In this document: piece by piece, positions 2,462 to 60,295 of the stretch
Layout: every line of letters starts with the position of its first letter
Position numbering within the stretch: position 1 is the stretch's first letter
Source of the DNA: Callorhinchus milii
Taxonomy: Eukaryota
Length of the DNA: 64,000 nucleotides
Assembly (NCBI RefSeq): GCF_018977255.1
Contig: NW_024704742.1
Coordinates: forward strand, 29,700,001-29,764,000
Direction: 5' to 3'
The notes under the pieces: generated by a model
What the model was told of the DNA's origin: nothing
The model's input: the letters and a program-made list of their open reading frames with translations, nothing else
Database searches by the model: none
Program-made: the position numbers and the translations under genes

Positions 2462-3098
2462 TGGTAACTGTAACACCAGTGTGTATAAAACCATGCTTTA
2501 GTCCTTTGTAACTGAAACTCTGTTGAGAAAACAGTAACAAGCCCTTGTACATGGACAAATTAAGTTATATTCGCTGGGCAAATAATGGAACACACACTGT
2601 GATCCAAGATGGGATTATCGCTGTAGCAAAATAAAATAGAAAATGTTCACGAGACAGGAGCAAAATGCCAGCAAGTCAGATATCAAACTGTGAGACCAAG
2701 TACTATGGTGGACCGTTTATGAAACACTAGTCCCCAGTTACACTTCTTGATCTGTCAGAGTTTGCAAAGGAAATCTATTTTAGCACAGTTATTTGTTGGA
2801 ATATAAAGTGTTCAAAGTGCCCTATCAAAGCCAAGCCTCAAGCCAGGCCTTAACCAACTTTCCTTGAATCTAATCAATGCATCTTGAACAAAAAACACAT
2901 GGACCACTTATTACAAGACCAACTAAAACACAAGGCAAGTCAAAAAGATTAAACGTACGCACAAACAGAGATAAAACTAACGCTTTGGGGACTTCAAAGA
3001 AGTGAAATAAGCAAGAATCCTCTAATATAAAAGCAAGAGGAACAAAACTAAACACCAATCTTGGCAGCATTGAAAATCAATATGCTCTTCTCACTTAC

Positions 3099-4616
3099 CG
3101 GACCATGGCTTGGCAGTGTTCCATAAGGTATTGTCTGGGGCAGTAGTCCTTTCTGCTTCATTAACAGCAGGCGCTTCTGTTCCTCACTAATATGAGGAGC
3201 CTGAGGTTGAATATGTGGCTGCTGTTGCTGCAAGTAGGGCATCATAGGAGTTTTGTTCTGACTAACCATCGGCGGGGTCATTCTCTGGCCCACAGGCTCA
3301 ATATTATAATGAGACAGTGGTTTAGTGTTAGCATACGAAAGCATGGCCTGTTTGTTCACAGAGTTCTGCCCCATGCTATTTGGCTGTTGATTCATCATGC
3401 TCATGTGGTTTTGTGAGAGGTAGTTATTCATGGCCTTCTGAGGGTTGCTTGTCATAGTAGGCACCATAGGCTTTTGGTTATTAAAGGCCTGTGGGTACAT
3501 CATTGGGCTATTTGGTTTGTCTGGATTAAAGGGTCCTCCAAAGGGACTGTGTGGTGGAGCTGCGGGTGACCAGCTCGGTGTCTGATTCTGCTGGTGCTGT
3601 TGCTGAGTGTGTTGGTGCTTTTGCTGCAGCAACATAGCTCTTTGCTGCTGCTGCACTGCCATTTGCTTTAACTGTTCAGCTCGAGACAGATCAGAACCGG
3701 ATGGCGGCAGAGGTCCTGGACCAGATCCCGGTACAGGTCCCGGTCCTGGCCCCTGGCCTGACCCTGACCCAGAAGATGTCGTCATCAGAAAGCCACTTCC
3801 AGGTCTTGCGTGTGCTGGGGTTTGATTGGGGGTTTGCTGCTGGGATTGGCTTGCAGAGGTCACTGGTGAGGTGGCCGGAGCAGAAAGTGATGAAATGCTT
3901 GATACAGACGAGACGTTAGAGACCGTAGAGACGTTGGAAAAGGGAGGACCTGAAGAAGATGGTCTCACCTGAGGAGATCCCATCGACATCTGGTTAAAAG
4001 GAGATGGACACATCTCAGACTTTATATTTGTGTTATCTTGTGGCACTGGGGTTTGTGCAGTGGGTCTGATAACCTCAATCTCTTTCTTTTCATCGAAATC
4101 TTCATTGAACAGATCGTGCATGTCATCTTCTGGGACTGTGCTCGTCAGTTCATCAATTAACTCTTGCCACTCCTGTTCGTTGAGATTAATGTCCGAGAAC
4201 AGTTTATTCTGATGGACAAGGGAAGCGTCCGATGAGTCCATACCCGTTGGGTCATCCAGCGGCTCTTGCTTAAGATCCTTGGTTAAAATCAGGTTAAAGT
4301 CATCATCATCTCTGGTGCCATTGACCTGTAGGTTCACTCTGGGATGTCGACCTTCTTTGTTTAGGTCGTCCATTCCCGTTGAATTATTTCCACTGGTCGG
4401 TCTGGGAAAAGTTGGTTTAATGTCAATTTGATGCAGAGGAGAGACTGAAGGTATGGGGATGTTATTGGGCAGACTGTTGCTCTGCTCTATCCCAGGTCCC
4501 TCTTTTCGGACTCTCTTACTGGTCGGAGAGAAGCTGCTGTCAGAAACTCCATTTTGCAGGTCTCCATTCAGTGGTGAACGGGCTCCTTCAAGTTTCCGCT
4601 TAACAGTTTCTTGAAG
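3099..4616 (-). CDS. MAML3: Mastermind-like protein 3, large internal coding exon (exon 2 equivalent), 506 codons, phase 0 at both ends
   Basis: Minus strand reads ttctctttattttcctcccaaAG|CTTCAAGAAACTGTTAAGCGG = LQETVKRKLEGARSPLNGD, the start of MAML3 exon 2. It runs in frame into ORF 3048..4373 (KQEPLDD, LFSDINLNEQEWQELIDELT, AEQLKQMA, SPMMYPQAFN, NTKPLSHY, EEQKRLLLMKQKG) and ends SHGP at donor CCG|GTAAGT (3099/3098). Motifs fit MAML3 better than MAML1/2 (recalled sequences). Confidence 0.95.
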
Positions 4617-6729
4617 CTTTGGGAGGAAAATAAAGAGAATTGATTAATGAACGATTGCACGTTTGACTCCACTTGACAGAAATGTTAACTCTCTTCAGTG
4701 TAAACTTGTGACCAGCAAAGTACAGTCAAACTGCATATCTGTAGATTCTTGGAGACCATAAAGCCATTCTCATTTCATTGAGTATATCAGAGGTTCTGCC
4801 AGGAGCAAATCAAAGGTGTCTAATACCTGTCTGTTACTATTAGGTTTGGCTGTATAAATTGGGGTTCAGTGTTTCAACCAAAGAATAATGCTTGACGCAA
4901 ACTGCTCCTCTTGTGTTTCAATTAATTCAGCATTTTAACAATTACGGTTAAATATATGGGTAAAATTCCATTGAGTGTTACATCCTTATAAAGGGAAATC
5001 CCATTAGAGGCTGACATCAGGTGAATCTTTACCATGTAGTCTTTTAATCTGCAGTTAGATCTACATCTTTCTTTTCAATGTAAAACTGTTTTGTGGCATT
5101 TCTTCTTATTAATAATTATCCCAGATCTCCTTGAAGTGGAACCGGGCTCCAATACCCTTCTCAATGGTTGTGCCAAATAACCAAAGTAGTTTTCTGGCAT
5201 TGCACTGCTGGCTGGAGGGATATTGCCTTGACTATCATTTCTCTCCTTAGTTAAGCCTGTATCCCACTAACCCAGACCAAAGTCCAATGGCTTCTCACCA
5301 TAATCATTGAGATGGTTTTGGGTGTCATGGGGCAAAGGGTTCAGTGGACCTTTGATGTTAATTATCAACTGGTCGCTAAATTAATGCATATGTTATTTAG
5401 CACTCAATTAGCTGTTAATTAACACACTACAACATGGCAATTTTCACCCCATTGATTCTAATTGCAATATTCCTTGTTTTGATATTTTGGAGTGATTATA
5501 TTTATTACTATATCTGTACAATTTCTCCTTATGCGCTCCATTTAATTCAGTGCAGATCAAATCGGTAATCATCTGGTCAGCACACTTGCCTGTTATACAG
5601 GGCCTTTACACACTTGTGGTTGACTTTACCCACTTGTCCATTGATGGAGCCATTGAACTGCTATTTGGAAGGCCTCACGCAAAAAATTGTTGAGCAATAG
5701 TGGCATCGGTGGGATAACTCCATTGCACAATGACGGAATGTCTTGGGACGCCCATTAATTGTATGTTAGTGATATCTCAAGATCAAGTTAGATTCAGATG
5801 AAGAAGGTATTTGATCTCATCCTTCAAGAATATCCACCCTGCTGTCTCCCCTTTAATATGTCATGTGGGTAGTGGTAGCTGTAGGAGTGTGTGGGGGGTG
5901 GGTGTGTGTGCAGGGAGTCTCGAAGCTTCACAACAGAAGCAACCACCCACTTCCCCTCATAGGCTTCAATACAGAACTGGGGGGGGAGGGGGAAGAAGGG
6001 CCCAAACTGCATACGCTCAGTGGGGAAAGAAACAACCATAAGTTTTATCAAAGTACTGGACAATTAGTCCTTATGAACCTTTCACAAGGAAATGGCAGAA
6101 CAGTACACACTGGTGACTTTATTCTAGGGGTTCGATTCATGTGTAATTTACGTGGGGATAAAGTCTGGAATGAAAACAGGGCTTTGCTCCAGAGTGACTG
6201 ACAGCTCAGGTCCAAACAGCGGCTTTTTTTTCTGAAGGAGAACAAAAGCAGGCGACTGGTTTTTAAAAAAAATCACTTTTATGATTTCTGTCATGAAAAT
6301 TCCATTAACTAGCCCAGGGTTCACTGGAATCAGATACTGCATCTGGGTTTCTCCAGGACTAAAACAGCATTATTCACAAGCGCTGAATAATGAAAGCTCT
6401 CCAGGGGGTTTGTACATTTCTGTCATAAGCAGTGGTGAGCTCCTGCAGACCTCGCGGCTGCCTTGCACGCGGACAGTCAGTTGTCATTGTCCTCAAACTG
6501 AGTCCAACCCACTCCGCACCATGTGTGTGTCGCTCTTTGCTTCTGCCACAAACCTGTGGCGAAAGCGGGGCACATAAAGCGACCACTGCCCTCGAAGAAG
6601 AAAATCGACTGCACTGCTATTCCTCTCCCAAAGTGTCCCTCCGCTTCTCCCCCTGCCTCGGACAATCAACAGTGATGCCCCACGTGCTGTGTCTCTACCC
6701 GAACAAAGATAAAATATTCGCCAGACGCT

Positions 6730-13007: not shown

Positions 13008-15699
13008 TAAACTCTGCTCTCTGGCCAGCACTGGGCGCCTCCCTTGGCCACATCGGGGAATGAGATCAGCATCAGAGCAAATTGCCAGTGAGTTAAAACC
13101 CACAGGATTCTATGCCTAGAAACTCTTTTATGAATCGCTGCATACTGGAGCTCAGCAGATGACCTGGGACAACGTGAAGGTAAGGGACAGCACCCTCCCT
13201 CCCTCCACCACAGTCATGGCTGTAAATGAGCACGTGTGTTCTTGTTTCTTACTACAGCACAAGGACAAACCAGAGTCTTGAGTTCTCAGTAACTTCAAGC
13301 ATGACATTTGCGTCAAGTGTACTGTGCAGCGAACCACAGGCACATGTTAGCATGTATTTATAAACTGCAACAGGCCACGGGACTGAGCCAATTCATTTAT
13401 TGAATTGAAGGCAGCCAGCAAGATGTTCTTTCCAATATGACAAGTAACATGGAAAGGCGCGAGTGAGGCACAATTGCAATGTAACTTCAGTCACATATAA
13501 CTGCCCATTATATTGAAAAGTGTGTCCAATTACAGTATTACAGAGATTTCCTTAATATTTGATCCTGTTTTATTTTTGACACGCAATAAATGGTGGGAAA
13601 GGAGCGAACTGCACAAAATCTTTTGGCAAATCACCTCTTTACATCAATATAATTCAGCTTAGAAAGAAGCACGGGAAATCGTTGGTGCAAAGTCAGAGAT
13701 GATTTGTAAATGGACCATTTTAACGTGTCACCGTTCAATCGCGGGGTGTTTATGATAAATGTTTCAGATCGATGCTGGCTTTAGGCTTTACTTCCTGCTT
13801 CCCAGAAAATAATGGTCTGGTGAAGAGAAAAGTGACACTGAGACCCTCAAGTGGAATGAGGGGCTGACAGTGAGAGAGCCAGGAATGGCAACTAGGAGTG
13901 TGAGTGTTCTGTGAGTGTTCTGCAGTACCAAGATTTCACCCAATCTTTGTATAATAAATGCGAATGCAATCTTTGTGCAACCATCCTCCGCATCCCACAC
14001 ACATCCCCACACACAATCCCCCACCACACATGATAATACCTGCATTTGATATAGCACCTCATCACATCTTTGCAATATCTCAAAGCGCTTCATACATTAT
14101 GCTGTAAAGTGAATTGACTATGTTTTGTGGGCAAAACGCGGCAGACATACAACCCACTGCCCAGCCCCCACCCAGCTTCACAACCCTCTGCTCCCCCACA
14201 AAACCACCCTGCCCAATATAATCATAAACAACTTCCCTGCCCCCCCCAACACTCACCAACCCCCTGCCCCACCTCCTGACCCCTACCACACACACAAACA
14301 CAACCCCACCCTACCTTTCGCAACATGGAAAAAAAAGTTTAATCTTCAAACAAAGAAGCGAAAGAGAGAAATTAAAACATTTATAATAATCTTTGCATTT
14401 GGTAAGAGCACCCATGACATTGGGAGGAGGTCTCATGGGATTTACTGTGAAGTGTAGTGACGAAGAATTGTGTAGGCAAACATAGTCATTAGATTTTAGC
14501 ATCATTGCCTAGCTCTGTCTAAAACATACAGAAAACTAATGTTTTCTGAAAAGAATTGAACCAAGAATACTGCATTCAGCTACAGCTGAATTCCACTGAC
14601 ATTATTTTACAGTACATTTGCCCAAGTGATTATCATATTAAATAAATACTGAGAGCTAAGAATCAGTGAGCTAAGTGTATATTTTGGAATATATATACAC
14701 ACACACATACACCCGCACACACACACACATGCAAGATTTCCTATTTATCTTATGTTAGAGGTTACAAAATTCACTCAAAGGAACTCCCACTTGTTTGGGA
14801 AAAAAGCGATGTTTACACACATAGAGCCAGTCAAGCTCAGCCCTGTTGTTTGAACAACCGCTCACTCCTGTTGACAGAGAAACCACGTGACTCCAGGTTA
14901 ACAAACTACACTTGTGCCTGACACGCCACCTTTGAACCCAGGCACTTTAGGTGTACATGTCTCTGTCCTGCTCACCACTGAGGGAAATGGTGGGAGATGT
15001 TAGCTCTGAGGTTGACATTGCCCTGGCTGCCAAATACAGAAGAGCCCATCTGCCTACAATGATCATACTTCATGCAAACCCACATTTTATAACATTTTAT
15101 AACATCCTCCACATTACCCCCCCCCCCCCCCCTCATTAAAGAGAAACAAACTATTTCACAGAACAGGATCTTCACAACACAACCTATGACCCAACATTTA
15201 ACTCTTGAATCATGTCCGTCAAAAATCAATCATATTGTTACACAATCCAGTCCCTCGTTGGTTCTGCTGACTGCGCTCCTATTAGGTGTGTATTGCCAGA
15301 AGATGTGAAATGATCCATTAAAACAATAATAAAATTGCTTGCATTTGATACAGCGCCTTGAAATGGGTGAAAGCACTTCACCCAACCAGTTACTTTGAAG
15401 CGTAGTGAGTGCTGCTACATGGGCAGATGAGGCAGCCAGTCAACAGCATATCACAAACAGCAAGGAGAAGGACAACCACATTCATGTACCTGGATCAGAC
15501 AAGAATATTAGTCAGGGCAGCAGGAGAATCTTATGCTCTTCTTCTTCGAGAGAAAGAGAGCTCATGAAATTTTCAATTCCCCTCAAGCCACCTGAACAGG
15601 GACATGGGCTCTCAGTTTAGTGTCTCGTCTGAACAATGGTTCTGGACAAACTGCAGCTTTCTCCATAACCACTTTCCTTCTTGATTTATCATTTATTGT

Positions 15700-16019
15700 G
15701 GAGTCCTGTAGCTCAGTGGTTAGAGCACTCGCTTTGCAAGCGAGAGACCTGAGTTCAATTTCAGGCAGAGCGAAACCTTGGGCAAGTTTCCTTACTCCAC
15801 ACACCTAATAATAATCCCTCCAAAACCCAAAACAATAATAAATTGGTCATTTTCAATCTACGACTGTTTGTGGGACACTGCTGTGTGCAATTGGCCGCCG
15901 CGTTCACCCACAAATATACAGTCAATTCACTTTACAATGTGTTCTGTGAAGCACTTTGGGACATCCTCCCGACATGAAAAGCGCTATATCAAATGCAAGG
16001 ATTATTATTATTATTATTA
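15700..16019 (+). mobile_element. Young tRNA(Ala)-like SINE, short subfamily, full length
   Basis: GGAGTCCTGTAGCTCAGTGGTTAGAGCACTCGCTTTGCAAGCGAGAGACCTGAGTTCAATT head, Deu-type body, L2-like tail GCGCTATATCAAATGCAAGG(ATT)n. Closely matches 43106-43424 and 59971-60295. Confidence 0.92.
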
Positions 16020-16091
16020 ATTTTGGGGGATCACAACTGAGGCAGAGAATCATGAATTAGCTGGTGGTTCATAACAGTAACAAAATAATAT

Positions 16092-16494
16092 TAATAATAA
16101 TCCTTACATTTGATATAGCGGCTTTCATTTTGGGTGGACATCTGAAAATGCTTCACAGGAGCTTTACTGTAAATTATAGTGACTGTCTATTTTGTAGGCA
16201 AATGCAGCATTTATGCACGATGGAACCCCACAAACAGCTGTGAAGTGATTGACCAATTTTATTTGAAGAAATTGTTGGCCAGAACGAAGGGAGAAACTCC
16301 CTTCTCTTTTTGAATAGTGCCATGGGATCTTTAATGTCCACCTGAAGGTGGAGCCTCAGCTTTAACCTCTCACCCCTAGGCACTGCATTGGAGTGTCAGT
16401 CTCAACTGTGAGTTCAAAGTCCCAACGTGGAGCTTGAGCCCACAAATATCTAACTCACAGGCGAGAGTGCTGCCAAGTCAGCCAAGCTGACACT
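16092..16494 (-). mobile_element. SacSINE1/Deu-like SINE, near full length
   Basis: Tail, Deu core (gtgccatgggatctttaatgtccacctga) and head (gagagtgctgccaagtcagccaagctgacac) in reverse orientation. Confidence 0.8.
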
Positions 16495-17639
16495 GTGAAT
16501 TACTCCCAATGCAGTGCTTGGGGTGTGCTACATTGTTGGGAGGTGCCAGCCTTTGAATGAGATGTTAAACCAAACTCCCGATTGCCTGTTCAGGTGGACG
16601 TTAAAAGACAACTATCCCCCAATTGAAACCGGTTATTTCAAATCATGGCTTTAATGCCACGCCAGCCCGCCCAACACACAGTCACACCACTTTACAGTAA
16701 ATCCTCTGATGCATTTAGAGAAGTCTCAATGACGCGATCACAGGCGCTATAATAAATGGAAGGATTATGAATATATAATAATCCTTGCATTTGATACAGC
16801 GCCTTTTCATATTGTTGAGACGTCTCAAAGCACTTCACAGAATGTAAAGTGAATTGACTGCATATTTTGTGGCCAAAACACGGCAGCCAACTGCACACAG
16901 TAGTGTCCCGCAAACAGTCGTGGACTGAGTGACCAATTTTTAAAAAAAATGTACTGTAAGTGTGTATATGTGTGCGTGGGGGTGGGGGGTGAGAAGATAG
17001 GGTATCATGATGTCCCCAGTCCAGCAGTAGTGACTGAATGCATGTTCACGTGCAGTCTAAGGATACAAGCATGTGTTTGTAATGTGGATAAGCAGCTGGA
17101 CATCTTCCGAATGAACCCATCCAGCAAAGCAGAAGGAAGAGCAAACCAGCCTGTCTGGACCACTGTTCCCTGCACTGGAGACTTCAGGATGACGGACGTG
17201 CTCACAGGAAAGCAGCGACCCCTGTGAGCTCCCTACACAACACAGTTTGAACCAAATCTCATCTCCCGCCAGCACCACTCCCCATGCCCACTGCTGCACT
17301 AACAGGACAGAGCATTGCGCTGGGTTAATGCACTCACTGTCACCTCGATCGAGCTTGACTGCCTGAGTAAATGGGACCAGAGACCCGTTTTCATTTGTGT
17401 TTCTTGTAGATCAAATTAACCTTTTGAGTACTAAGTGGCTTACTTTATACTGGGATTGATTTTCCATCAGTTGATCCTGCTATGAACAATACGCTCCCTT
17501 GGACAGCACAGTGGATGAATGGCCGATTCCTCACAGTCCAATTAGCACAGGCAGCGGGAGGGTGACTTTGACAGCAATTCAGGCAGCAGAGAGCGGCTCA
17601 ACACAAGCACAGACTCTGTCATTGGCCCCACATTGGAAT

Positions 17640-17920
17640 CTCTGTCACAATTGCACCAGCGAGTTGTGAGATGAAAAGGCCAATTTATTTGGAGGACTGG
17701 CAGCCCGGACACTGGGAGAAACTCCCCTCTCGTAGTGTCAAGGGATCTTTAAGATCCTCCTGAAAGACAGTTTTATGTCCCATGTGAAGGACAGCACCTC
17801 CGGCAATGCAGCCCACCACCTAATATAACACTGGAGTGTCAACCTTAACTCTGAGTTCAAGGGCTTGAACCCACAACCTTCTGACCCGGAGGAAAGAGCG
17901 CTACCAACTGAGCCAAGCTC
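17640..17920 (-). mobile_element. SacSINE1/Deu-like SINE fragment
   Basis: gacagcacctccggcaatgcagc...ggcttgaacccacaaccttctgac...ctaccaactgagccaagct. Confidence 0.75.
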
Positions 17921-17950
17921 ATACCACATATAGAATTGTTTAAGTGCTGC

Positions 17951-18155
17951 TGTGTTTTTCTCAGTGAGGTCTCCCAGTGTGTGAATCACTCGTCTGTCTG
18001 TGAGAGTGACTCTGCTGCATTCGTGACAACAGCTGCAGGCTGCGTTGCACGGCTGGAGACCGTATTGGAATGATTCATGTGAAGGAATCGGATCCTTTTA
18101 CACCAATTGACTTGTCAGTTTATCACATTCAGCCTTGACCAATGAGCGCTCTGTG
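17951..18155 (+). repeat. Left arm of 205-bp long-range inverted repeat
   Basis: Manual alignment to the reverse complement of 27347-27551: 200/205 identical, no gaps. Confidence 0.95.
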
Positions 18156-18304
18156 TGTTCATATCTAGCTCTGTATGCATATAAGTGTGTTTGTAAATTA
18201 TGTGTATTTGCAATGTGTAGAAATGTATACTTATGTGTGTTGTGTGTATATAACGCATGTGCACATATGTGTAATGCGAATAGAATGAGTGTGTGTGTGT
18301 GTGT

Positions 18305-18717
18305 GTAGGATAGAGTTCAAAATCCTTGTCCTCGCCTTCAAAGCCCTCCACCGCCTTGTTCTTCCCTACCTCTGTGACTTGCTAACTCCATATCGACCTG
18401 TCCGCTCCCTCCACTCAGTAGGCTTCCAGCCTGCTCTATGTCCCCCAGCTTGCCCGCCCCATTATCGGTAGTCTGGCCTTCAACCTCTCTGCCCCCACCC
18501 TTTGGAACTTCATCCCACCGTCCCTCTGCCTCGCTCCCTCCCTTGCCTTCCTCAAGCCCCTCCTCTTCGACAGCACCTTCGGTCACCCTTCTACCCTTCC
18601 TGCCTCCAACCCTCCTGATCCCATCTCCCTGCTTGGGTCCAAATCCCAGAAAGTCTTGCGTCTTGGGACATGCTCTCCACGTGAAAGGTGCTATACAAAT
18701 GTAAGTTGTTGTTATTA
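18305..18717 (+). mobile_element. L2 LINE 3' fragment (ORF2 C-terminus plus 3' UTR)
   Basis: Encodes RIEFKILVLAFKALHRLVLPYLCDLL, the typical L2 ORF2 end; finishes cgtgaaaggtgctatacaaatgtaag(TTG)n. Confidence 0.88.
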
Positions 18718-20057
18718 TGTGTGTGTAAAATGTGTATGTGTTTTGTGTCTGTGTGTTTATGTTTGTTTTAGTTGCCAAGGAGAGGCTAAGCAGGAAGAAC
18801 AACACATCCCAGGCAATTCTCACACACCTCTCAACAGCAGTGTATGGAGGAAGCTTATCCTCTATCCTGAGGTGGGCAGGCAGCTGTCAGGAAAATACTG
18901 TACAACTTGGTCTGTTCCCAAATTGCTTTTCACATCCATGAACATGTGGCCTCTTGTACGTTTACCTTGACAATCTGAAAGCATTGTCCCAGATTTATCT
19001 TGTATACCCCACTGAAGTATCTTATATACCATTTTTCCAGCTCAAGAGCTTCAACATATCTAATTGTTAAGGTGGATTAATAGTTGAAATGGGTTAAATA
19101 ATGGAGAATACGTCTGAGGTATTCAGTATGCTCAAATACATTATTTTCTGAAAAGCTCTGGTTTTGAAAAAAAACTCATAAAATTGTTACCAGAGATACA
19201 AGCGCTTTGGGACATCCTCCCGACGTGAAAAGCGCTATATCAAATGCAAGGATTATTATTATTATTATATTCAACAGTTAAATCCAAGTTTAACTGCACA
19301 GTTGAAACCATTGCTTTTTTAAACGTACACTTGCCTGATCCAGGGATAAACCTATTGCTTACAGTGGGGATAAAGAGCAGTCAGTACAGGTTGCATTGAA
19401 AGGGAACATAATGGAACCAGCACAAGAAGAGCAAGAAAGGACCTGATGGGAGAGAGCAGTACAATACAATTCACATTTATGGAGTGCGTTGCGTGTCAGG
19501 AGAACGTCTCGGAGCACTTAACACAGCTGGTTGGGCACCTGAGCTGGGGGTGGGAGTCAAAGGTGGTGGGGAAGGAGAGGGCCGTGAAAGGTGTATGTCT
19601 TGAGATGGATCTTGAATAAGATGAGGAAGGGAACAAGTCAGAGAGAGTGGGGACAGAACAGCTGAAAGCCCACCCACGTGCAACTATGTTCTTTTCAATA
19701 GCCATCGACTCCTCCTGGTGCGTGTAGTCTGTCACCTTTGAATGGGCAGAGCATCACTAGCTGCAGAACCAAGCAGCACGGCCTCGATCCCTTCGCTAAT
19801 TGGAGACTGTTCAAACCCGTCGTATTTCCACTGGTGTCACCGACTGCTTGGTAAACATGGCTGGTGAAACTGAACTCCCATCTAATAAAGGTCTCAGTGC
19901 GGGGAGGCAATTACTGCTGCTCCCAGGTGTACCATAAAAGCTTGAGGGTAAGGAAGAAGATGAAGAGAAAGCTGGTTGAAAAGCTGAAGACGAAAATCTG
20001 ATCCTGGTCTGGTGTCAGACACAGGCTGAAAGGCTTAGTTAATATCGAGACTTTAGA

Positions 20058-20392
20058 GGATTCCCGTAGAGTGGTGGTCAGCGCGCTTGCCTTGCAAGTG
20101 AGAGGACCCGGGTTTGATTCCCGGGCAGGGCGAAACCTTAGACAAGTTTCCTTACTCCACACGCCTCTGTTTACCTAGTAGTAAGTAAGAACCCGGTTGT
20201 TAGTCGATTGGTGGATTGCTTTCCCGGGATAATAATCCCTCCACGACTGTTTGTGGGACACTGCTGTGCGCAATTAGCTGCCATGTTTCGCCCACAAAAT
20301 ATAATCAATTCACTTTACAGTATATTCTGTGAAGTGCTTTGAGATGTCTCGAAGACACAATAAGGTGCAATATCAAATGCAAGAATTATTAT
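20058..20392 (+). mobile_element. tRNA(Ala)-like SINE, long subfamily, full length
   Basis: GGATTCCCGTAGAGTGGTGGTCAGCGCGCTTGCCTTGCAAGTGAGAGGACCCGGGTTTGATTCCCGG head, GCCTCTGTTTACCTAGTAGTAAG segment, Deu-type 3' part and tail. Confidence 0.9.
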
Positions 20393-22946
20393 GTCAGCTC
20401 AACTGAGTCAGGCTGAGTCAGTCCTAGGCCTACTGTTGGACTATCTCATGAGTGCCTCCCAGCTTCACACTTGGTGTAAGAATCTAGCTTTTTTTTTTAA
20501 AACAGCGCAGAAGAAGGCCATTCGGCCCATGTTGTCTTACTTACTTACAGAGGCGTCAGTTCCTCTGAATCTCCAGGCTTGCTACCGAATTTCCCCGTGG
20601 TCCCTACATCCGGAATAGTGCTGGTAAAGGAATATTTCCTGGTGTCTTTGTTAAAATTGTCTCTATAAGCATTAAATCTGTGTTGTTACCTTGGGATACC
20701 TGAATGACGTCTTGTTTCAGGTTAACTTTCCATATACCAATAACGCATCTTATTTATACCTCTGTTAGGTCCCCTCTTCTCAAGGCTAAAGAGCACTGTG
20801 TATCTCACTCTTATATTAGGTTAGTGATTGTTGGGTTAGTGGTTGAAGGGTTAGTAGCAGTCACTATATTCAACGGTATCCCTGGCTGAAGCTGTGCTGT
20901 AGCACCTGCTGCTAAAGCATGGAAAGAACCAGGGTCTCATTCAGGCTAGGAATCCTTTGGTATAGACGAGCAGGGAGAGTGCACGGATCCACCGGGACTG
21001 TTTAACCAGCGGCTGGTGATGGACTTGCAACTCTGGTAAATCTGACTCACAAGATGGGATTTTGCCGGATTATGATGTGTCGAACAAGCCGAAACACAGT
21101 GACAAACACAAAGAGTTTCCCTAAAACTCTGAGCGTGTAGGCGGTGGCCGAGCACTCCACAATGTAGCACCTGCGATTTCAAAGGAAGGTCTTTCCATCA
21201 GAGTCCGGCTCGCTGCCTGTCCAGGCTGTGTGCTGGCTGCGCTGCCTGCCGCTGGCTGCACTGCCTGTGTTCTGTCTGTGTGCTAATTGATCCTACTGCA
21301 GCAGCCATGGTGGCCAGCACTATCAATCAGCACTTCCAACAAGCAGCACACAAAGGTCTAAAGTCCCATCACTGCCTTCAAACACATTGCCTCTTAGCAG
21401 GTAGGATGTGCCAGTCCTTTGGATGGTAAATACAGACACAGCACCATTTCATTGAGCTCTTCGTCACACACACACACACACACAGACACGTACACACTGT
21501 ATGTATCGCACAACCCCTTCGGAATGGACACTGAGATTCGGTCTGCCTGTTCAGGTGGATGTTAAGGAGCCCATGGCAATAACGACAACAAGGTTACATT
21601 TGTATAGCGCCTTTCATGTCGGGAGGACGTCCCAACGTGAAAGGCACTACTCAAAAAGAGAAGGGAATTTCTTCTCGAGTCCTGGTCAACAATCCCCCAA
21701 ACAAAAATTGGTCATTTGTTTCAAAGCTGTTTGTGGGGCATTGCTGTGTGCAATTGCGCTGCCGTGTTCACCTACGAATAGTCACTCCAATTTATGGTAA
21801 ATCCTGTGAAGAGCATTGAGACATCTCTGAGACATGATAAGATGCAATAACAAATGCAAGGATTATTATTACTATTATTACCCCCATACACTCCCAACAC
21901 ACATACCCTCGCCCCACCACACACACAGAAAGAAACACACACATATGTAGTTGCACCCCTCACACACAAGCTAGCTAGCGAGGGTCACCAGCCGGGGACC
22001 AGCAGCCAACATCTTAAGGTGATGCTTCCTCCCGCTGGGCTCGGGTGCTGAGCCTTGGGAACCCCAGTTCCGTGAGGCTGAGATCAGCAAAAACAAACCA
22101 GGGATCATGATTACCTCCAAACTCGCTGAACGAGCCATCGCAGAAGGCCACTGTGTTTTAGCAACTCCCAGGAAGCAAATGAGCATATCAAGTTGACTCA
22201 TCTCCTGGTTAATCTCCCAACTCTCTCTCCCACAAGTCACACATCTCCTGTTTTCACTTCCTCTCAATGAGCTGAACAACAACAACAACAAAATTACATT
22301 TGTATAGGGCCTTTCACATCGGGAGGACGTCCCAAGGTGCTGGACAGACAGAGTTACGGACCCGAGCTGAGGATCAGGAATTGGCAGGAGGGCGAGTACA
22401 GAAGGGAGAGACTGCGGTCATCTGTATGCCCCGAGGCACAGTGCCCCATTTTGTCCCTCAACACACTTTGTAAGCCTGGCAGATGTGAAAGGGATGGGCT
22501 GATAGCAAACTACAGTACCACAGTGCGAGACTCGACATGAGGAGCACAGAGCGTTTTGTGAATGAAGATTATGCACTGTGACCCACTCAGAAAACTAGAG
22601 ATCAAGCAAAGTAAAGCATCAGAGGGGTAGTAACTGCAGATAGAGCCTTAGATATGACCAGACCCAATAAAGTAAGGACGGTGTTAGTAGTCACGACTCT
22701 CCACTCCTGTATATTTAGGATCTTGGTTGGTTTGCCGGTGGATTCTCGTCTTGAATTCTATTCTGATGCTACCAAAGTCAGTGTATGCGCCACTGTGTAA
22801 TTGTAGGTGACTGAGAGCTGGTTGAAAAGATGCATTTTTAGATGGGTTTTGATAAGAGGGAAAGTAGGTGGGAGGGTGCAAGTTGGAGCGATTTTGGAAG
22901 CGAGTCCCAGAGAGAGGGGGCAAAGTGGCTGAAATCTTGGCTGCTA

Positions 22947-23234
22947 AACCAGAGGACACAGATTTAAGATAGTTGTCAAAAGAACTAGAAGGGAGATGAG
23001 CAGAAATTGTTTCACACAGCGAGTTGTTCGGATCTGGAATGCATGGCCTGAAAGGGTGGTGGAAGCAGATTCAATAACAACTTTCAAGAGAGAAGTGAAT
23101 AGATATTTGAGCAGGACAAATCTGAAAAGGCTACAGGGAAAGAGCGGGGCAGTGGAATTGATTTGGACAGTTCTTTCAAAGAACCAGCACGGGCATGATA
23201 GGCCAAATGGCCTCCTTCTGTGCTGTATAATTCT
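22947..23234 (+). mobile_element. CR1 LINE 3' end (ORF2 C-terminus plus 3' UTR)
   Basis: TRGHRFK...RNCFTQRVVRIWNAWPERVVEADSITTFKREVNRYL, then ggccaaatggcctccttctgtgctgtataattcta. Confidence 0.9.
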
Positions 23235-25789
23235 AAAGATGGGGCAACAAGCAGAGAATAAGAGCTGGTCAACCAGTTCTGGATTAGCATGCTTACTGAC
23301 CAGTTTCATTCCTCAGTGTGCACTAAATAGCACCTATCATTGTGTGGCCAACCACACAGCGATTAAAGCCGCTGTTAGCAGTAACGATTGATAAACCCAC
23401 AGCTGTGGGGGATGGCGGAGCAAGACTTGATTTTTGAAGCACTCTCTCAATATATGCCAAATAAATCAAATCAACTCTGAGCTAATGACACTCGCTTTCC
23501 TGCACAACAGCATCTAAAAGGCGAAACTGATTCCCTGGGGGGCAGAACACAAGCACCAGCTGGGCTCACGGATACAGGAGCAGAAACATTACAAAATACA
23601 CTGAGAAACAGCTCGCTCCCTCACTCTGCTCGCCCTCACTCTAGACACACACACGGATAAGACGGATAAACCCCCACAGCGTCATAAAATGCCATTGATT
23701 TGCTCCTGTTCTATAACTATGGCTGCTCTCACCCTCCGCAGAGCACGACCTGTCCTTGCTCATTCCGAATTGCATAGCCCTATCTCTGACTTCCCATGTG
23801 GTGGGGCCTTCTCGAATCTGGGAATTTGTTAGGCTTCTGGTGACTTGCTGAGACTTTAGCCTGAATGAAGGCACTGGGATGTTCTTACCTTAGACACGCC
23901 ACCACCCTCTCCCATATCTTGTGTCAGAACCTGCACAAGTTGCCGTCACAGACAGGGTAAAAGCCAAGAGAAAAATCACGTGTCAGTCCAACAAGAGAGT
24001 GGGGTCTCCACACTTAAAACCTACCACACGGCAAATCCTCCAACAAAGAACAAAGGCTTTCCTTACGCCATTCTCAAAAGGTGGCAGATGTCAAAAGAAA
24101 TTACCTAACCAGTACCATATTCCATGGTTATGAAGCCGACTCAAATGCATCTGAGAAAAGAGCAGAGATATATTGACAGAATTTCCTGAGAAGTCGTTTA
24201 TAACAACAACTTTAACTTATACAGCGTATCTTGAAGCGCTTAAGGTCTAATGCCCAGAAAAGGGGACCGTCACATGTTTCCTGCTTTGAAATCTCTTAAA
24301 AGGAAGGATAAGACAGAGATTTTCCTGCTTTAGGGTTAGGAACATAGAAACAGGAAGCTATTCAGCTCATTGAACCTGTTTTCATCAGTTTGTTAAATTG
24401 TGGCAGATCGTTTAATCCTGCAGCAGAGCCCTGGAGCCCTGTTAAAACATGGTAGTTGGGAAGGGGGTGCTTAAAATTCCAACCAGAGTTATAACAGGGA
24501 GTAACTACTGGTTAGCACTCCCCACTCATTGTGGTATATGAGGACAGCCGGCTACACATGCGATTCAACAGTCCGGGCGGCACACAGAAAGACAAAACGG
24601 ATGAATTTCGGGTCATTGGGTCCCTGTCAATGTCGCTTCCTGGGTCCAACAGGAAGTGACTCTGGCTGCATCCTGATGCCCAAGCGATCAACCATTTGTC
24701 TTCCTGTGCACTGGCTGGTGTTTTGAAGCGTGATGGAGCCACCGCATGAATTTTAGATTTTTCACATAAGGTCAGGATTCACACACCATAAGCGAGCAGG
24801 CGTTATAACCAAGCACTTTATAATGGAGGTGCTACTGTATTTCCCTGCCTTTTGCCCATACCCCTCGTGACCCTCACTGGCTGCCTTAAGCGTGGTTCTC
24901 ACAATATGAGAGCGGCAGGGTTATTTATGCCTACTGCCTATTGAAAAATGACACCGCAAAAGAAGCAACCAGTTTGTTTACATCGCTGATTCCTTGTTTT
25001 CAACCCAGGAATTGTCACGGATGCTCCTTTAACAGGCTTCATCTGTGCCACATTTGCGCAGATTCAATCTGCATAATCTGCGACGGAATCGTGCTCCCGT
25101 ATAAAATGTGCGGCAGCTTCTCTGCTGTTGAATTATACAGTGACTTAACTTAAAAAGGAAAACAGACAAATCTGCTAGAGCGATCTCTAGTCACTGAGTG
25201 GTGACATACCAGCACATGTAAAACATCTGTAAGCCTCAAGCGCAGGGTACAAAGGATGGGAAGAAAGTGGGACGTAACCCTTTAATTTGTTGATGCTGTC
25301 ACTGATATTATTGATCATGCAAGGTGGTATTCAAATAGCTGTTGAACCCATTATGACACTTGTATCTGCTGCTGATCTAAAACACAAGGGAAGCGCTCAT
25401 TTGTAGTGTGTGTCTCTGAACTGCTTCTGGGAAGAAACAATGTGCTTATCTACAAAACTGATCCAGGGGGCTGCATGACTTATTCATTTATCTTCTTTAA
25501 AGTGAAGTGGGGAGAGAGAAGGAGGAGGAAGAGGAGGAGGAGGAGGGAATGGGAGAATCAGTCTCGCCTATCCAGCAGGAGCATTTATTTATTTCAAATG
25601 TATTCTAAAGCGTTGCTGCTTCGTGTGAAGAGAAGGTAGTCTAGACCTGTGCCGAAACCTGCCACATGATAAGAGTAAAAGATCTCACTGCGTTATTCCA
25701 GCCATCCTTTCAATTAGTATCTCCTTACAACCTCTAAATATACATTCTCCCCTGATGGTCGAGAAGTCTGGAAGAGATCCTGTCCATTA

Positions 25790-25965
25790 GGGAACTCTGC
25801 CATAAAAACCAGGTGGGTCCCAGGTTCTCTCCCTGGCCTGTGCCGAGTTAGCCAACCTCAGTCAGGACAGGTAAGGGTTCTACATTTAACCCAGTATCCG
25901 TGATCTATAGAGAAAAAATCTCCCCAGTATTTCTGCTCCTCATTATGATCCATTGCTTCCCGCTT
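25790..25965 (+). mobile_element. Older SINE family copy (related pieces at about 28380-28550, 34190-34330, 34950-35040)
   Basis: Shared motif tcccaggttc...ctgtgccgagttagccaacctcagtcaggacag...aaaaaatc..ccag..tt.ctgctcct recurs at these sites. Family not named with certainty. Confidence 0.55.
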
Positions 25966-27099
25966 AAAAACAAGTTCAGAGGTCTGAAATTTCGGACTTA
26001 GACCTCGGTCACAAGTTTTAAGACTGTGTGGTGAAGTGTAGTAACTTTGTTTTCATAAGTAAATACCATTTTTTACTGGGTGTTTGTGTACAGGGAGGTT
26101 CCACAAACAGCCAGGAAGCCATTGGTCATTCACTTACTTCATGGCTATTTGTGAGAAACCGCAGTGTGCAGATTGGCTGCTGCCTTCACCTACAAAATAC
26201 ACAGTGACTGCACTTTGTAGTGCTTTGAGACATCTTCCCTATGTGAAAGGTGCTATACCAAAACCAAGGATTATTATTATTATTATTATTATGAAGTGAA
26301 TGATGAGTCTGTAGCTCTTGGGAGTCCTGGCCACAGATAGGAGTCAAAATGCCTTCAAGAGAGGAAGGATGGGGGAGAAAACGGCAGGAACAAGGAATTC
26401 AGCTCTGTATGTATCATACTACTCCTCTCACGAGCACTGATTGTTACTGCAGTCAGGTTTGATACGGAGCAAACATTCACCATTCCCAAATAGCTTCCCA
26501 AAGTGATGGTGCTACAGGTTTGTTGGAAGCATGTCTCTCTGACCAGCCCTCCTGAGGTGAGCCCCGAACTGGAGCTAAAGTTCTTCCCCAGAGAGACGGA
26601 AATCAGAGAGAGAGAGAATCTCCACTCATTCATGTAATTTACTAATATAAGATCAGGAATGGTCAGATGAGGTGGGGGAGGGGGTAAATCGGACTGTATT
26701 ACCCACCCTGTTGTAGGGAGTAAAGGAGCCTGGAAAAATATACATGATATTCTATCCTACATGGGAGTATCGTACTCTAACATGCCAGACTCATCGCAAG
26801 GCTCCCTTCACCACCACTCAGTAAAACGGTGGAGTTCACCAGCACACACCATCAAAAACACATTTAATAGCGTTCAACAGAGCTCAGAAACCTTCCGAAT
26901 ATATATTGTCTGGCCTCCTCAGATCAGCTGGTCACACAGAGTGCCTTTTGCTAGTCCCTTTGGTGTTTCACAGCATCCTTGCTTGCACTTCTGTAATTTG
27001 CTTACTTAGAATACTTCCCCTTAACATCTTTTAACATGTTTACTGCAGCAATGTAATCCTGGTGGCACTGCTTTGGGACACTGATCCAGGACACTGGCA

Positions 27100-27346
27100 G
27101 ACACACACACAGAAAGATATGCACAAATAAGAGACATACACACAGAGATAGAAAAATACACATACCGACAGAAAATTACATACACGCACAGATGCACATA
27201 CACTCACACACACCACACACATACACACACAAAAAACACATGCACAATTACTCCAACTCCTATATGAACACAGACAGACAGACAGACAGACAGACAGAAA
27301 CACACACAGATAGAAATATCCAGACAGACACCAACAGACAGACATG
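27100..27346. repeat. Degenerate CA/CAGA microsatellite on the inner side of the right inverted-repeat arm
   Basis: (CA)n/(CAGA)n runs mirroring the TG-rich run at 18156-18306. Confidence 0.85.
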
Positions 27347-27551
27347 CACAGAGTGCTCATTGGTCAAGGCTGAATGTGATAAACTGACAAGTCAATTGGT
27401 GTAAAAGGATCCGATTCCTTCACATGAATCATTCCTATACGGTCTCCAGCCGTGCAACGCAGCCTGCAGCTGTTGTCACGAATGCAGCAGAGTCACTCTC
27501 ACAGACAGACGAGTGATTCATACACTGGGAGACCTCACTGAGAGAATCACA
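27347..27551 (-). repeat. Right arm of 205-bp long-range inverted repeat
   Basis: Reverse complement of 17951-18155 with 5 substitutions. Confidence 0.95.
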
Positions 27552-28854
27552 TTTCATATTTTAGATATATGTGTCTACCAACACGCCCATCTGCGTAGCT
27601 GGTGAATACTGCAGGTGTGATTTTCATTTCGGATTGATTGGGAGGAGCTTGTTGCAGTTAGAATCACAAGCCATAAAAAGGTACAGCGAGTGGTTTTAAT
27701 ATGAACAGGGATACACTCTCCCCACCCCCACCCTCCCACCCCCCTCCTTGTACTTTAACAAAGATTTCAATTTAGAATTCAGATCACAGCACGGACATAA
27801 AGTGGGACAGACTGAAATAAATGGCTCACTGATGAACCAATTGCTGGCAACACAGAGGCACGCGTGTACAGTGTGCTGGGATTATTATTGGGTTAAAACC
27901 ATACAGGTTGGCCAGTGATGCAGTGTTGCATCCTGCTTTGTGTGTGGTTTTTTTCCACTACAATTTATCTTTAAACCAATCCTCCAAAGGTCGGTGCAGA
28001 ATATTCCTGAGGCAAACTGCGGAGACAAAAGATTTCACGTTTTCGCCAGAGTGAACCTGCATTAAAAGGCTTCAAGAAAATACTCTTCTTACTTATGTCT
28101 TTTCACTTTTGTCTAACAAACACGGATGTCTTAATATTGTTGGTGACAGTCACCGGCAATGTATGCGTTATCTGATATTTTCTTCCTGGTGGGCGATCTT
28201 GCCAAAGCAAATAGTCGTCACATTTCCCTACAGAAAGTCACTCCACTTGACTTAACAACTCGTGAAGCACTTTGAAATCTTCTGATGTTACAAAGTGCTG
28301 TACAAATGCGAGTCTAGTTTTCCTTCCCTTCGTCATTTCTTTCTACTCCACCCAACGCCTCAGGTAGTAACGTTATCGATTAACGTGGAACTGAGCCATA
28401 CAGATCCAGAATGTCGCAGGTGCCAATCCTGCTCTGTGTTAAATTAGTTGCTCTGAGCCAGGGCAGCAGGGGCACTAAAACTGGCCTCGGTGCCCCCGAT
28501 TAAGGACAAGAACAATCAGACAAGAATCTCTATTAGAGATCCCTGCTGGGTGTTTCAACAACAACTTGCTTTTATATAGCGCCCTTCACATGGATAACAT
28601 CTTGGAGCACTGCACAATGGCAGGGTTGGACACTGAGCGAAGGAGAGGGGGATGTGACCATAGGTGCAGTTTTAGAGGTAGGCTTTCAGGTTGGATTTAA
28701 AGTTAAATAATTGGGGGTCAAGGCGGAAGGATTGAGACAAGGAGTTACAGAGATTAGGGGTGTATTGGCTGAAGGAACGACCACCGATGGTGTCACCGGA
28801 TCCAGTTCAGCTGACATTTCGCCCCCCCCCATTCCCCTCCTTTTTTAGCTAGGT

Positions 28855-29055
28855 CATTTAGGAGTGAAATCGGGAAGCACTTTTTCACACAGAGGGCAAT
28901 GGAAATCTGGAACTCTCTCCTCCAAAAGGCTAGGAAGGGTATGAAGAAATATGGATCAAAAGCAGGTAACTGGAGTTGAGGTACAGATAAGCCATAATCT
29001 AATAGAATGACGGATCAGGATTAAGGGTCTGAATGGCCTACTCCTTTTCCTATCC
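28855..29055 (+). mobile_element. CR1 LINE 3' fragment with internal deletion
   Basis: gaagcacttttttcacacagagggcaatggaaatctggaactctctcc...gggtctgaatggcctactcct. Confidence 0.8.
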
Positions 29056-30725
29056 CACCACACAAGGTTTAACAGTTAGCTCACATTCATTGTCTGGGAA
29101 TTCAGCATTAATATCAGGAAATCGGGCTGATAGCTGATGGTTTTTGAATGGTACCCCAGCAAAGACTCAGCCAGGCTGTGCCTTCAGGTGAGGAACAAAG
29201 GAGATTGGAAAGGAAGAAAAAGAAACAAGAGTCCTTATATCCCAAAGGGATAATGGAATGGCTGGAGACTACTCTCTCCCACAATTAAGACTGAACCCAA
29301 TGAAGTCCTTGGAGTCGGACTGGGATGACCTGAAAGGAGACGCTGGATCTTAGTCGCTGACTTTCTAAAATAAAGCAACACGTTCAAATAAACCAACAAG
29401 GGGTACGTTGTGAAGCGATAATCACAGAAAGGTCTCCCGTGTTTTGATAAGCACTTCAGTGGTACACTGCTGCTAATTGGTCTCAACTGAAACCCTCGGG
29501 AACTGCATTTTTGAATACTTTCGACCACTAAAATATCCAGCAATTAGGAAACTTAAAACCATGGTTGTGGGTTTTTATTGTGTCAATTGCATTTGATTTA
29601 AAAACATGTTAAGTCACCACACGAACAGGAGTTTATTTAGGTACGGAATCACTTTACAACAGCGGAACAGCGCTGTTGCGGTTGAGTAAGAAATCGGTCG
29701 GATATTGTCGGCAGTTCCAGAGAGGCTGGCTGACTGGCTCTTCTACTCAGCTCAGGTTTTCTAATTCAGGCTTTGTTTTTTTTTGTTGACGGAGTTGGGG
29801 GTGGGGGGGATAAGAGAGAGGAGCATTGAATTGTCTTTAATGCAAGTTTTTAAGGTGAGATGTTAAACTGAGATCCGGGCTGCTCCGTTCAGGTGGGCAA
29901 TAAAAAGAAACACTGCACTGTAGTTTGCCCTCACATCATAGACAGCAATCCTCCACATGAACTGGTCGGTTGCTTCACGGCTGTTTGTGGGACTTTGCTG
30001 TGCATAAGATATTTGCCAAGATAAAACAGTCGCTTTACCGCATTAGTGTAATTTCGAAAATGGTTACTTTTAAGAATTGCTGTAAAAGTGGGTTTAATGT
30101 TAAGACTGAATTAGCAACGAATATTCCACAATTATTGCACCATGTGGTTTTTGAGCCAAATCGGGTATCAAAGAGACTTAACTCTTTGAGAGTGGGATTT
30201 CGAGCACGCCCATTTCGGGGTTTACAGCGAATCCTGCGAAGCTCTCTGAGACGTGTTCCTGACACGAGAGACTACACCAAATGTAAGGACTATTATTGCT
30301 ATTCTCCTCTAGTGGTAAAGGTATCAACTCTTGCTGGAGGGAGTGTGAAGCGATTTCCCAGTGTGCAAGCTCTCTGCCAAAAGACAGTATATTTGCCAAC
30401 AACTAGAGAACAATCCCCTGCGAGTCCGTGAGCGGAGGCATCGCTCCCTTTGCAGGCTGCTGGCAGCGCTCGCTGCAGATCATATCTCAGCTTTCCCTAT
30501 CGCTTGCTGTCTGCATCGTGACTGGAATAAAACACCTCGGAATAAACCAGACTCATTAAACTTTATGGATTGTAAGAAGCTCCGTGCTAAACAGTGGTGC
30601 TTTAAAATAAAGCACAGAATCTGCGTTGGAGGTGTTTCACAGTAATAGTAAGCCAGGATTACTGCACTATGTTCAAGACAATTTTATGTATCCACCAACG
30701 CAGCCAGGAATAACTGATAAATCAG

Positions 30726-59970: not shown

Positions 59971-60295
59971 ATAATAATAATAATAATAATCCTTGCATTT
60001 GATATAGCGCTTTTCACGTCAGGAGGACGTCCCAAAGCGCTTCACAGAACACACTGTAAAGTGAATTGACTGTATATTTGTGGGCGAACGCGGCAGCCAA
60101 TTGCGCACAGCAATGTCCCACAAACAGTCGTGGATTGAAAATGACCAATTTATTATTGTTTTTTTTTTTTTGGAGGGATTATTATTAGGCGTGTGGAGTA
60201 AGGAAACTTGCCCAAGGTTTCGCCCTCTGCCTGGAATTGAACTCAGGTCTCTCACTTACAAAGCGAGTGCTCTAACCACTGAGCTGTAGGACTCC
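59971..60295 (-). mobile_element. Young tRNA(Ala)-like SINE nested in an older Deu-SINE; possible CTAAGA target-site duplication
   Basis: Full head-to-tail copy. Flanks tccCTAAGAt / ttCTAAGAct; older SINE sequence at about 59800-59960. Confidence 0.92.

Follow-up and report, generated by a model that had tools for sequence, protein, structure and literature searches.

The first intron of MAML3 contains a real inverted repeat, made up of two 205-nt arms that lie in opposite orientation about 9.2 kb apart and match at 200 of 205 positions without a gap. The pair is not a mobile element, no selected function is indicated for it, and we regard the repeat as an ordinary structural relic. The account we favour, to which we give about an even chance of being right, is a local inverted duplication made by break repair that predates a species split and was later homogenised by gene conversion.

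The arms and their setting in MAML3 intron 1

We analysed a 64-kb stretch of DNA, referred to here as the window, and its relevant features are collected in Table 1. When one arm was compared with the other by BLAST, the match was returned at an E value of about 1e-99. The five mismatches fall at arm positions 5, 8, 31, 116 and 198, and one of them is a CpG-to-CpA change. The resulting difference between the arms is 2.4% (97.6% identity), the core is identical at 194 of 197 positions, and the longest uninterrupted stretches of identity are 84 and 81 bp.

Table 1. Positions of the arms, the sequence between them and the neighbouring MAML3 exons.
Feature	Position	Strand	Remarks
MAML3 exon 2	3096..4619	-	protein P0001 aa 143-650 matched at 100%
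Left arm	17951..18155 (core 17959-18155)	+	200/205 against partner; one of two genome copies found
Spacer	18156..27346	.	9191 nt, intronic; old interspersed repeats present, coding remnants not recognised
Degenerate TG/TA-rich microsatellite tract	18156..18306	+	ends in (TG)9; high-copy repeat from 18307
High-copy repeat in spacer	18307-18716		about 78% identical to other copies
High-copy repeat in spacer	20058-20392		about 82% identical to other copies
High-copy repeat in spacer	22947-23235		about 87% identical to other copies
CA-rich tract (TG-rich on minus strand)	27090..27346	-	(ACAG)n at 27270-27344; from Tandem Repeats Finder and density
Right arm	27347..27551	-	200/205 against partner; one of two genome copies found
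MAML3 exon 1, beyond window	C1:29826409-29826855		P0001 aa 1-149 matched at 97%

Similarity breaks off sharply at both ends of each arm. Outward of the arms, residual Smith-Waterman scores of 8-12 lie within the range of dinucleotide shuffles, and inward the score of 27 compares with a shuffle mean of 30, leaving no residual similarity on that side either. Because a second pair is expected if both breaks of an inversion were staggered, left-inner sequence was also compared with right-outer, and left-outer with right-inner. A nested second inverted pair was absent from these comparisons, which returned interspersed-repeat matches only, away from the junctions.

A search of the whole assembly (991 Mb) with the arm gave two candidates, both of which were scored and both of which are the arms themselves; other repeats were recovered by the same tool down to 69-70% identity. 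Within the window, arm matches other than self and partner are at most 22 nt long, with E values of at least 0.33. The near-perfect repeat described in the first-pass annotation, and its unlikeness to other repeats in the window, are thus borne out, and its concern that the arm might be a high-copy young repeat falls away with the finding of only two genomic copies. Its remark that the arms keep their CpGs stands in part: 7 and 6 CpGs are present in the two arms, but the observed/expected ratios of 0.59 and 0.51 are unremarkable against 0.41 for the window. Its list of motifs in the arm is likewise weaker than presented, having been drawn up post hoc. The GC content of the arms (48%) is not clearly higher than that of the spacer (45.7%).

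MAML3 is encoded on the minus strand. The protein used to place it, P0001, carries the source name mastermind-like protein 3, and its matches to exons 1 and 2 agree with the proposed location of the repeat in intron 1. Window positions 4620-64000 therefore belong to this intron, which is 122 kb in size. The arms lie 13.3 kb upstream of exon 2 within a single transcription unit, and no coding exon of MAML3 is found between them. The spacer is, as had been proposed, intron sequence with old repeats, whose copies are about 78-87% identical and in which no Pfam family scores above cut-off; its unique parts are also found in contigs of both related species considered below. Three single Ns occur in the window, none of them close to the arms.

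The two TG/CA-densest tracts of the window adjoin the arms on their inner sides in mirror orientation. The density of TG/GT dinucleotides is 0.407 in 18156-18305 and that of CA/AC is 0.493 in 27197-27346, compared with a window mean of 0.13-0.14. A density of 0.407 is met by only 0.25% of 150-nt windows on either strand, and by 0.01% on the plus strand. Aligned to one another, the left and right tracts score no better than dinucleotide shuffles, and the sole complex word that they share is TGTTCATAT, at offset 0 on the left and offset 76 on the right. The mirrored tracts, noted from the sequence together with their divergence beside intact arms, are confirmed by these densities. GC and AT skews across the spacer, meant to detect an inversion, were too noisy to be informative.

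Cross-species contigs and the age of the arms

The locus was compared with contigs from four of 24 listed runs (X1, X5, X7 and X12), which are k=31 assemblies and were compared at 85% likeness; SINE copies dominated the output, with part of the differences listed. A contig from run X12, which represents a related species, is placed on 27333-27785 (record 16) and takes in the entire right arm and its outer flank. The right arm of this species carries three indels in 205 nt, at 27465, 27489 and 27527, which indicates that conservation of the primary sequence is not tight. A second X12 contig (record 9, 350 nt) contains the left flank and left-arm positions 1-54, with 83 nt outside the listed placements. 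The left outer junction is also spanned, at 17863-18065, by a same-species contig from run X1. None of the listed runs is recorded as RNA; run X5, which may be RNA, covers the intron and the spacer as DNA would. Run X7, from a second related species, has no contig at three listed right-arm positions, and run X12 has no cover in 20970-21326; both gaps were treated as no evidence.

The X12 species diverges from the window by 9.1-14.1% in three listed pieces, compared with 0.37% for the same-species contig. To judge from these contigs, the junctions of both arms may well have existed before the 9-14% species split. For an arm pair older than the split, the 205 nt should hold at least 18.6 differences between the arms, whereas five are seen (P = 1.3e-4). 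An arm difference of 2.4% is far too low for two arms of that age, which points to gene conversion, and on this sequence comparison copying from arm to arm has probably maintained their likeness. Two points count against this reading. The minimal efficient processing segment is given as more than 200 bp in mouse and 337-456 bp in human (PMC3966225), so that conversion between arms of 205 bp, with 84 and 81 bp uninterrupted, would be inefficient at or below this length. Moreover, the related species' left arm is represented by one contig, which reaches only arm position 54.

Proposed origin and rival explanations

In the favoured account, otherwise unique sequence of MAML3 intron 1 would have been duplicated locally in inverted orientation through a break-and-repair event. 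Two such events are likeliest: the 9.2-kb segment was inverted with a staggered break, which would leave breakpoint sequence inverted at both ends, or a replication template switch took place. The break-prone TG/CA tracts beside the arms may have been involved in either. The beginning of the TG tract probably belonged to the duplicated unit and would since have decayed through slippage. The duplication seems to have preceded the split from the 9-14% diverged species, and its 97.6% arm identity may reflect occasional intrachromosomal gene conversion, that is, concerted evolution, for which the cross-species evidence is partial. Inversion breakpoints, one of the readings first offered for this locus, are plausible as the origin and conceivable as a consequence: at both ends of the segment stand inverted copies of sequence that is otherwise unique and belongs to no repeat family, as a staggered-break inversion would leave them. 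Two consequences would follow from ordinary biochemistry, without selection. The MAML3 pre-mRNA can form a 205-bp duplex with five mismatches, looping out 9.2 kb, and the arms offer a substrate on which the spacer could, rarely, be flipped.

The within-genome features alone also fit a younger duplication without conversion. Such an event would share the break-repair origin and fall after the species split, with 2.4% as its true age and no conversion; we consider it a serious reading but a rather unlikely one. Sharp boundaries, two copies and five differences including one CpG-to-CpA change are all in its favour, as is an arm length at or below the homology required for efficient conversion (PMC3966225). 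It is opposed by the related-species contigs across both outer junctions and by the inner tracts. If these were duplicated too, their want of alignable similarity is hard to square with 2.4%, and if they were not, they are mirrored by a coincidence of about 0.1% unless they attract breaks. The same contigs bear on whether one arm was misplaced or duplicated by the assembler, an artefact that the first-pass annotation had named as a risk and that we find scarcely credible. It has only the general risk of such errors to recommend it, the few Ns lying away from the arms. The arms differ at five positions, and each outer junction is spanned, the left by an independent contig from the same species and the right by the related species' contig. 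The three right-arm positions listed (27465, 27489 and 27527) also have depth in run X5.

That the arms are the terminal inverted repeats of a DNA transposon now dead and present once, or the inverted ends of another element such as a DIRS-like one, around an interior that decayed and received later insertions, is very unlikely. Inverted ends of about 200 bp do bracket 9.6 kb, tyrosine-recombinase elements are not known to leave a target-site duplication, and great age would agree with the occurrence in a related species. Nevertheless, no target-site duplication of 2-10 bp was found at any of 22 boundary offsets, and the only pair to exceed a loosened threshold, a 4/5 match, is located within the arm. 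Pfam returned no family above cut-off in 124 stop-to-stop frames of at least 45 aa from 17060-28252, with sub-cut-off matches at chance level. No remnant of a transposase was seen in these frames, and no reverse transcriptase, RNase H or recombinase family was found between the arms at E <= 0.1. Both absences, of target-site duplication and of transposase, had been stated in the first-pass annotation. In Rfam (16000-29500, E <= 1) there was no arm match, and the weak sub-threshold matches lie within interspersed repeats only. The assembly search, reaching about 70% identity, found no further arm copy in 991 Mb. A TIR DNA transposon was rejected on the absence of a target-site duplication, of a transposase and of genome copies beyond the two arms.

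There is also the question of whether selection keeps the arms alike, as a long-range MAML3 pre-mRNA duplex, as duplicated regulatory modules or as a 9.2-kb recombination switch. We judge this improbable. One transcription unit holds both arms, their RNA is predicted to form a 205-bp duplex of -402.8 kcal/mol, arm identity is far above the between-species divergence at the locus, and the alignment of one X1 contig stops exactly at a variable arm position (115/116). However, equal or stronger duplexes are predicted for inverted SINE copies of this intron, with one pair (15699-16030 and 43098-43425) at -598 kcal/mol, and the arms enclose no coding exon. The related-species right arm with its three indels argues against strong constraint, the enhancer reading included, and CpG content is barely above background. 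The earlier proposal of an RNA duplex kept identical divides: the part that invoked gene conversion agrees with 2.4% between the arms against 9-14% between species, and the part that invoked selection or RNA function has no support, given the stronger SINE duplex, the lack of an intervening coding exon and the three indels. The more specific idea that a short inverted repeat is held complementary across species, either as a duplex that affects folding, editing or splicing kinetics or as a two-state regulatory switch that flips 9.2 kb, is highly unlikely.

Significance and comparison with known systems

If the cross-species reading is true, the locus would be a small, clean case of concerted evolution at about the least length of homology needed for recombination, in the very slowly evolving genome of a vertebrate. 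It would also help to show, from a natural case, how short homogenised inverted repeats can be. A polymorphic microinversion may occur here, and as far as the evidence reaches the locus has no bearing on MAML3 function.

Intronic inverted SINE or Alu pairs form long double-stranded RNA, which acts as a substrate for ADAR and as the complementary sequence that promotes circular RNAs. The MAML3 arms resemble these pairs in being near-identical inverted stretches within one pre-mRNA with about 200 bp of pairing, and such SINE pairs occur in the same intron. Unlike them, the MAML3 arms are not dispersed, with two genome copies found, and have no coding exon between them.

In Y palindromes, gene conversion keeps inverted arms alike across species, and inversions are rarer (PMC3723533, Hallast et al. 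2013). The human Y palindrome P6 type offers a likeness in its inverted arms, unique spacer, identity above the expectation from age, and inversion of the spacer as a rarer by-product. The arms of Y and X palindromes are 10-1000 kb long, more than 99.9% identical and gene-bearing, whereas those in MAML3 measure 205 bp, are non-coding and autosomal, or at any rate intronic, and are about as short as homologous recombination allows (PMC3966225).

In Drosophila, inversion-linked inverted duplications of unique sequence range from 46 bp to 1.9 kb with a median of 321 bp, and are about 88% identical on average (PMC1885836, Ranz et al. 2007). That average compares with 97.6% for the MAML3 arms. The Drosophila cases so described are large inversions for which the ancestral order is known, whereas the present segment is only 9.2 kb and lies in a cartilaginous fish intron. 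The staggered-break duplications of Drosophila share with the MAML3 repeat an arrangement in which ancestrally unique sequence, inverted and with no transposon or target-site duplication, brackets a segment, and the arm length of 205 bp falls within their range.

The arm pair and its setting in MAML3

The inverted repeat described in the first-pass annotation is present as two 205-nt arms that match without gaps at 200 of 205 positions and lie 9191 nt apart (see table). The five differences fall at arm positions 5, 8, 31, 116, and 198, the last being a CpG/CpA difference, and the longest uninterrupted identical runs are 84 and 81 nt. A genome-wide search of the species' own 991-Mb assembly returned two candidates; both were scored, and both are the arms themselves. 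No further arm match longer than 22 nt occurs in the window. Since other repeats were recovered by the same tool in copies as little as 69-70% identical, the arm lies outside any recognisable repeat family and is not a high-copy repeat. The window holds 10 inverted pairs of at least 100 nt, among which the arm pair is the most alike; it is also the sole pair among those tested with just two genomic copies, and the partner regions checked (15699-16030 and 20058-20392) both belong to high-copy repeats. A tRNA-like Rfam match within the second of these (26.6 bits, against a gathering score of 29) probably represents the tRNA-derived head of a SINE.

A 1097-aa protein from a Callorhinchus species, named mastermind-like protein 3 in its source, maps exon by exon to the minus strand, and the reading frame of the MamL-1 domain exon is 99% identical to it. 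From the exon placements, intron 1 of MAML3 spans approximately 122 kb; the other exons lie below the window. Both arms are within this intron; relative to transcription they lie 13.3 kb upstream of exon 2, and no coding exon lies between them among those mapped. Beyond the window, at G000:C4:43700158-43707355, is a partial MAML3-like copy with four exon-sized matches of 81-87% protein identity to MAML3 aa 650-1097. This copy is distinct from the MAML-family locus at C4:53.3-53.56 Mb, and aa 1-650 have no match nearby among those listed.

Features at the locus. Positions are window coordinates unless prefixed C1, the contig whose stretch 29700001-29764000 is the window; X12 is a sequencing run from a related species, and mismatches of records 9 and 16 combine arm and flank.
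Feature	Position	Strand	Remarks
Left arm	17951-18155	+	
Right arm	27347-27551	-	
Left inner tract	18156-18305		TG/GT density 0.407
Right inner tract	27197-27346		CA/AC density 0.493
MamL-1 domain exon	C1:29826547-29826717	-	
MAML3 aa 1-149	C1:29826409-29826855	-	protein-to-genome match
MAML3 aa 143-650	C1:29703096-29704619 (window 3096-4619)	-	protein-to-genome match
X12 record 9 (350 nt)	17744-18004		left flank and arm positions 1-54; 30 mismatches (11.5%), 2 gap letters
X12 record 15 (968 nt)	24052-24765		unique spacer; 101 mismatches (14.1%), 11 gap letters
X12 record 16 (1192 nt)	27333-27785		whole right arm and outer flank; 41 mismatches (9.1%), 24 gap letters
SINE-like copies in intron 1	15699-16030, 43098-43425, also 59961-60169		inverted pairs 94-96% complementary
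tRNA-like Rfam match	20067-20124		
Single N	1428, 12859, 33280		all away from the arms

Similarity stops sharply at all four sides of the arms. Inward, the Smith-Waterman score is 27 where dinucleotide shuffles average 30; outward scores lie inside the shuffle range, and no second nested inverted pair adjoins the arms. The TG/CA tracts noted earlier do lie directly inside both arms in mirror orientation, at densities well above the window mean of 0.13-0.14; a density of 0.407 is reached by 0.25% of 150-nt windows on either strand. The sole complex word common to both tracts is TGTTCATAT, which opens the left tract (offset 0) and lies at offset 76 in the right one, behind a (CTGT)n block. This placement would fit homology continuing past a microsatellite expansion, though without statistical support. 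Alternating purine-pyrimidine tracts are break-prone, and one of two readings is that both breaks fell at TG/CA tracts; the other is that the duplicated unit took in the start of a TG tract, which later decayed by slippage.

Mobile-element and artefact readings, and a predicted RNA duplex

None of the transposon features looked for was found. No target-site duplication of 2-10 bp was found at 22 boundary offsets, no Pfam family scored above cut-off in 124 stop-to-stop frames of at least 45 aa over 17060-28252 (the best sub-threshold E-values, ~0.01-0.08, belong to unrelated families), and further genomic copies are lacking; the annotation had likewise seen no target-site duplication and no transposase. 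Rfam gave no match in the arms. The spacer is, as proposed, ordinary intron: unique sequence mixed with old interspersed repeats that are 77-88% identical to their genomic copies (45437 first-look candidates genome-wide). An assembly artefact is all but ruled out by a contig of X1, a same-species run, that bridges the left outer junction, by depth of a further run (X5) at three listed right-arm positions (27465, 27489, and 27527), and by a related-species contig across the right outer junction. An X1 contig of unique sequence shows 0.37% difference from the window. The X1 contig over the left outer junction, 364 nt long, has its listed placement only on 17863-18065, with 161 nt lacking one. 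That placement stops one base short of arm difference 116, which could be an assembly-graph path switch (k=31 contigs), an alignment-tool cut, or a flipped-spacer allele.

The annotation proposed a long-range RNA duplex kept identical by selection or conversion. In minus-strand pre-mRNA the arms are predicted to form 205 bp with five mismatches (by inspection, two A-A and three A-C/C-A) at -402.8 kcal/mol. Intron 1 also carries a young SINE-like family (3641 first-look candidates; copies across the genome are 95-97% alike) whose inverted copies are predicted to pair as well as the arms or better; the duplex of 15699-16030 with 43098-43425 reaches -598 kcal/mol. Duplex potential of arm size is therefore ordinary in this intron, and selection is not needed to account for it. 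The arms had been said to keep CpGs, but their observed/expected ratios (0.59 and 0.51) are only slightly above the background of 0.41.

Age, maintenance, and origin of the arms

Contigs of four runs were aligned to 17400-28100 at 85% likeness. X12 and X7, a run from another organism, have common differences from the window in unique spacer (29 of 30 listed X7 differences, at 23839-24029, are also in X12). Both outer junctions appear to be present in a species 9-14% diverged, the sole left-junction contig, record 9, being placed only as far as arm position 54, and 83 nt of it lacking a listed placement. If the pair predates the split, independent arms are expected to differ at 18.6 or more of 205 nt, against 5 observed (P = 1.3e-4 when the lowest divergence is used, P = 6e-7 with the pooled 12%), and their likeness is then the signature of concerted evolution. 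Simple sequence conservation is argued against by three indels within the right arm of record 16, at 27465, 27489, and 27527.

We regard an old duplication, its arms kept alike by gene conversion, as an even proposition. Arm length tells against such maintenance, being no greater than the minimal efficient processing segment given in PMC3966225 (mouse >200 bp, human 337-456 bp). A young duplication, arising after the split, would dispense with conversion, and the junctions that appear in the related species tell against it; we consider it less likely. Whatever the age, a break-and-repair event probably placed an inverted copy of ~205 bp or more of unique intron sequence at a distance of 9.2 kb; if the pair is old, occasional intrachromosomal conversion between the arms would then have kept them alike. 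An inversion with a staggered break is the best-fitting documented model for this origin. A replication template switch inserting an inverted copy is the alternative, and the sole difference between the two is whether the spacer is inverted.

The arm pair is real, and adds one more example of known processes, without indication of function. It probably arose as inversion-breakpoint duplications do: in Drosophila, 17 of 29 inversions are bounded by inverted duplicates of unique sequence, which range in length from 46 bp to 1.9 kb (median 321 bp; PMC1885836). The arms in the MAML3 intron work as a miniature version of palindromes with spacers, in which conversion is far commoner than inversion (PMC3723533).
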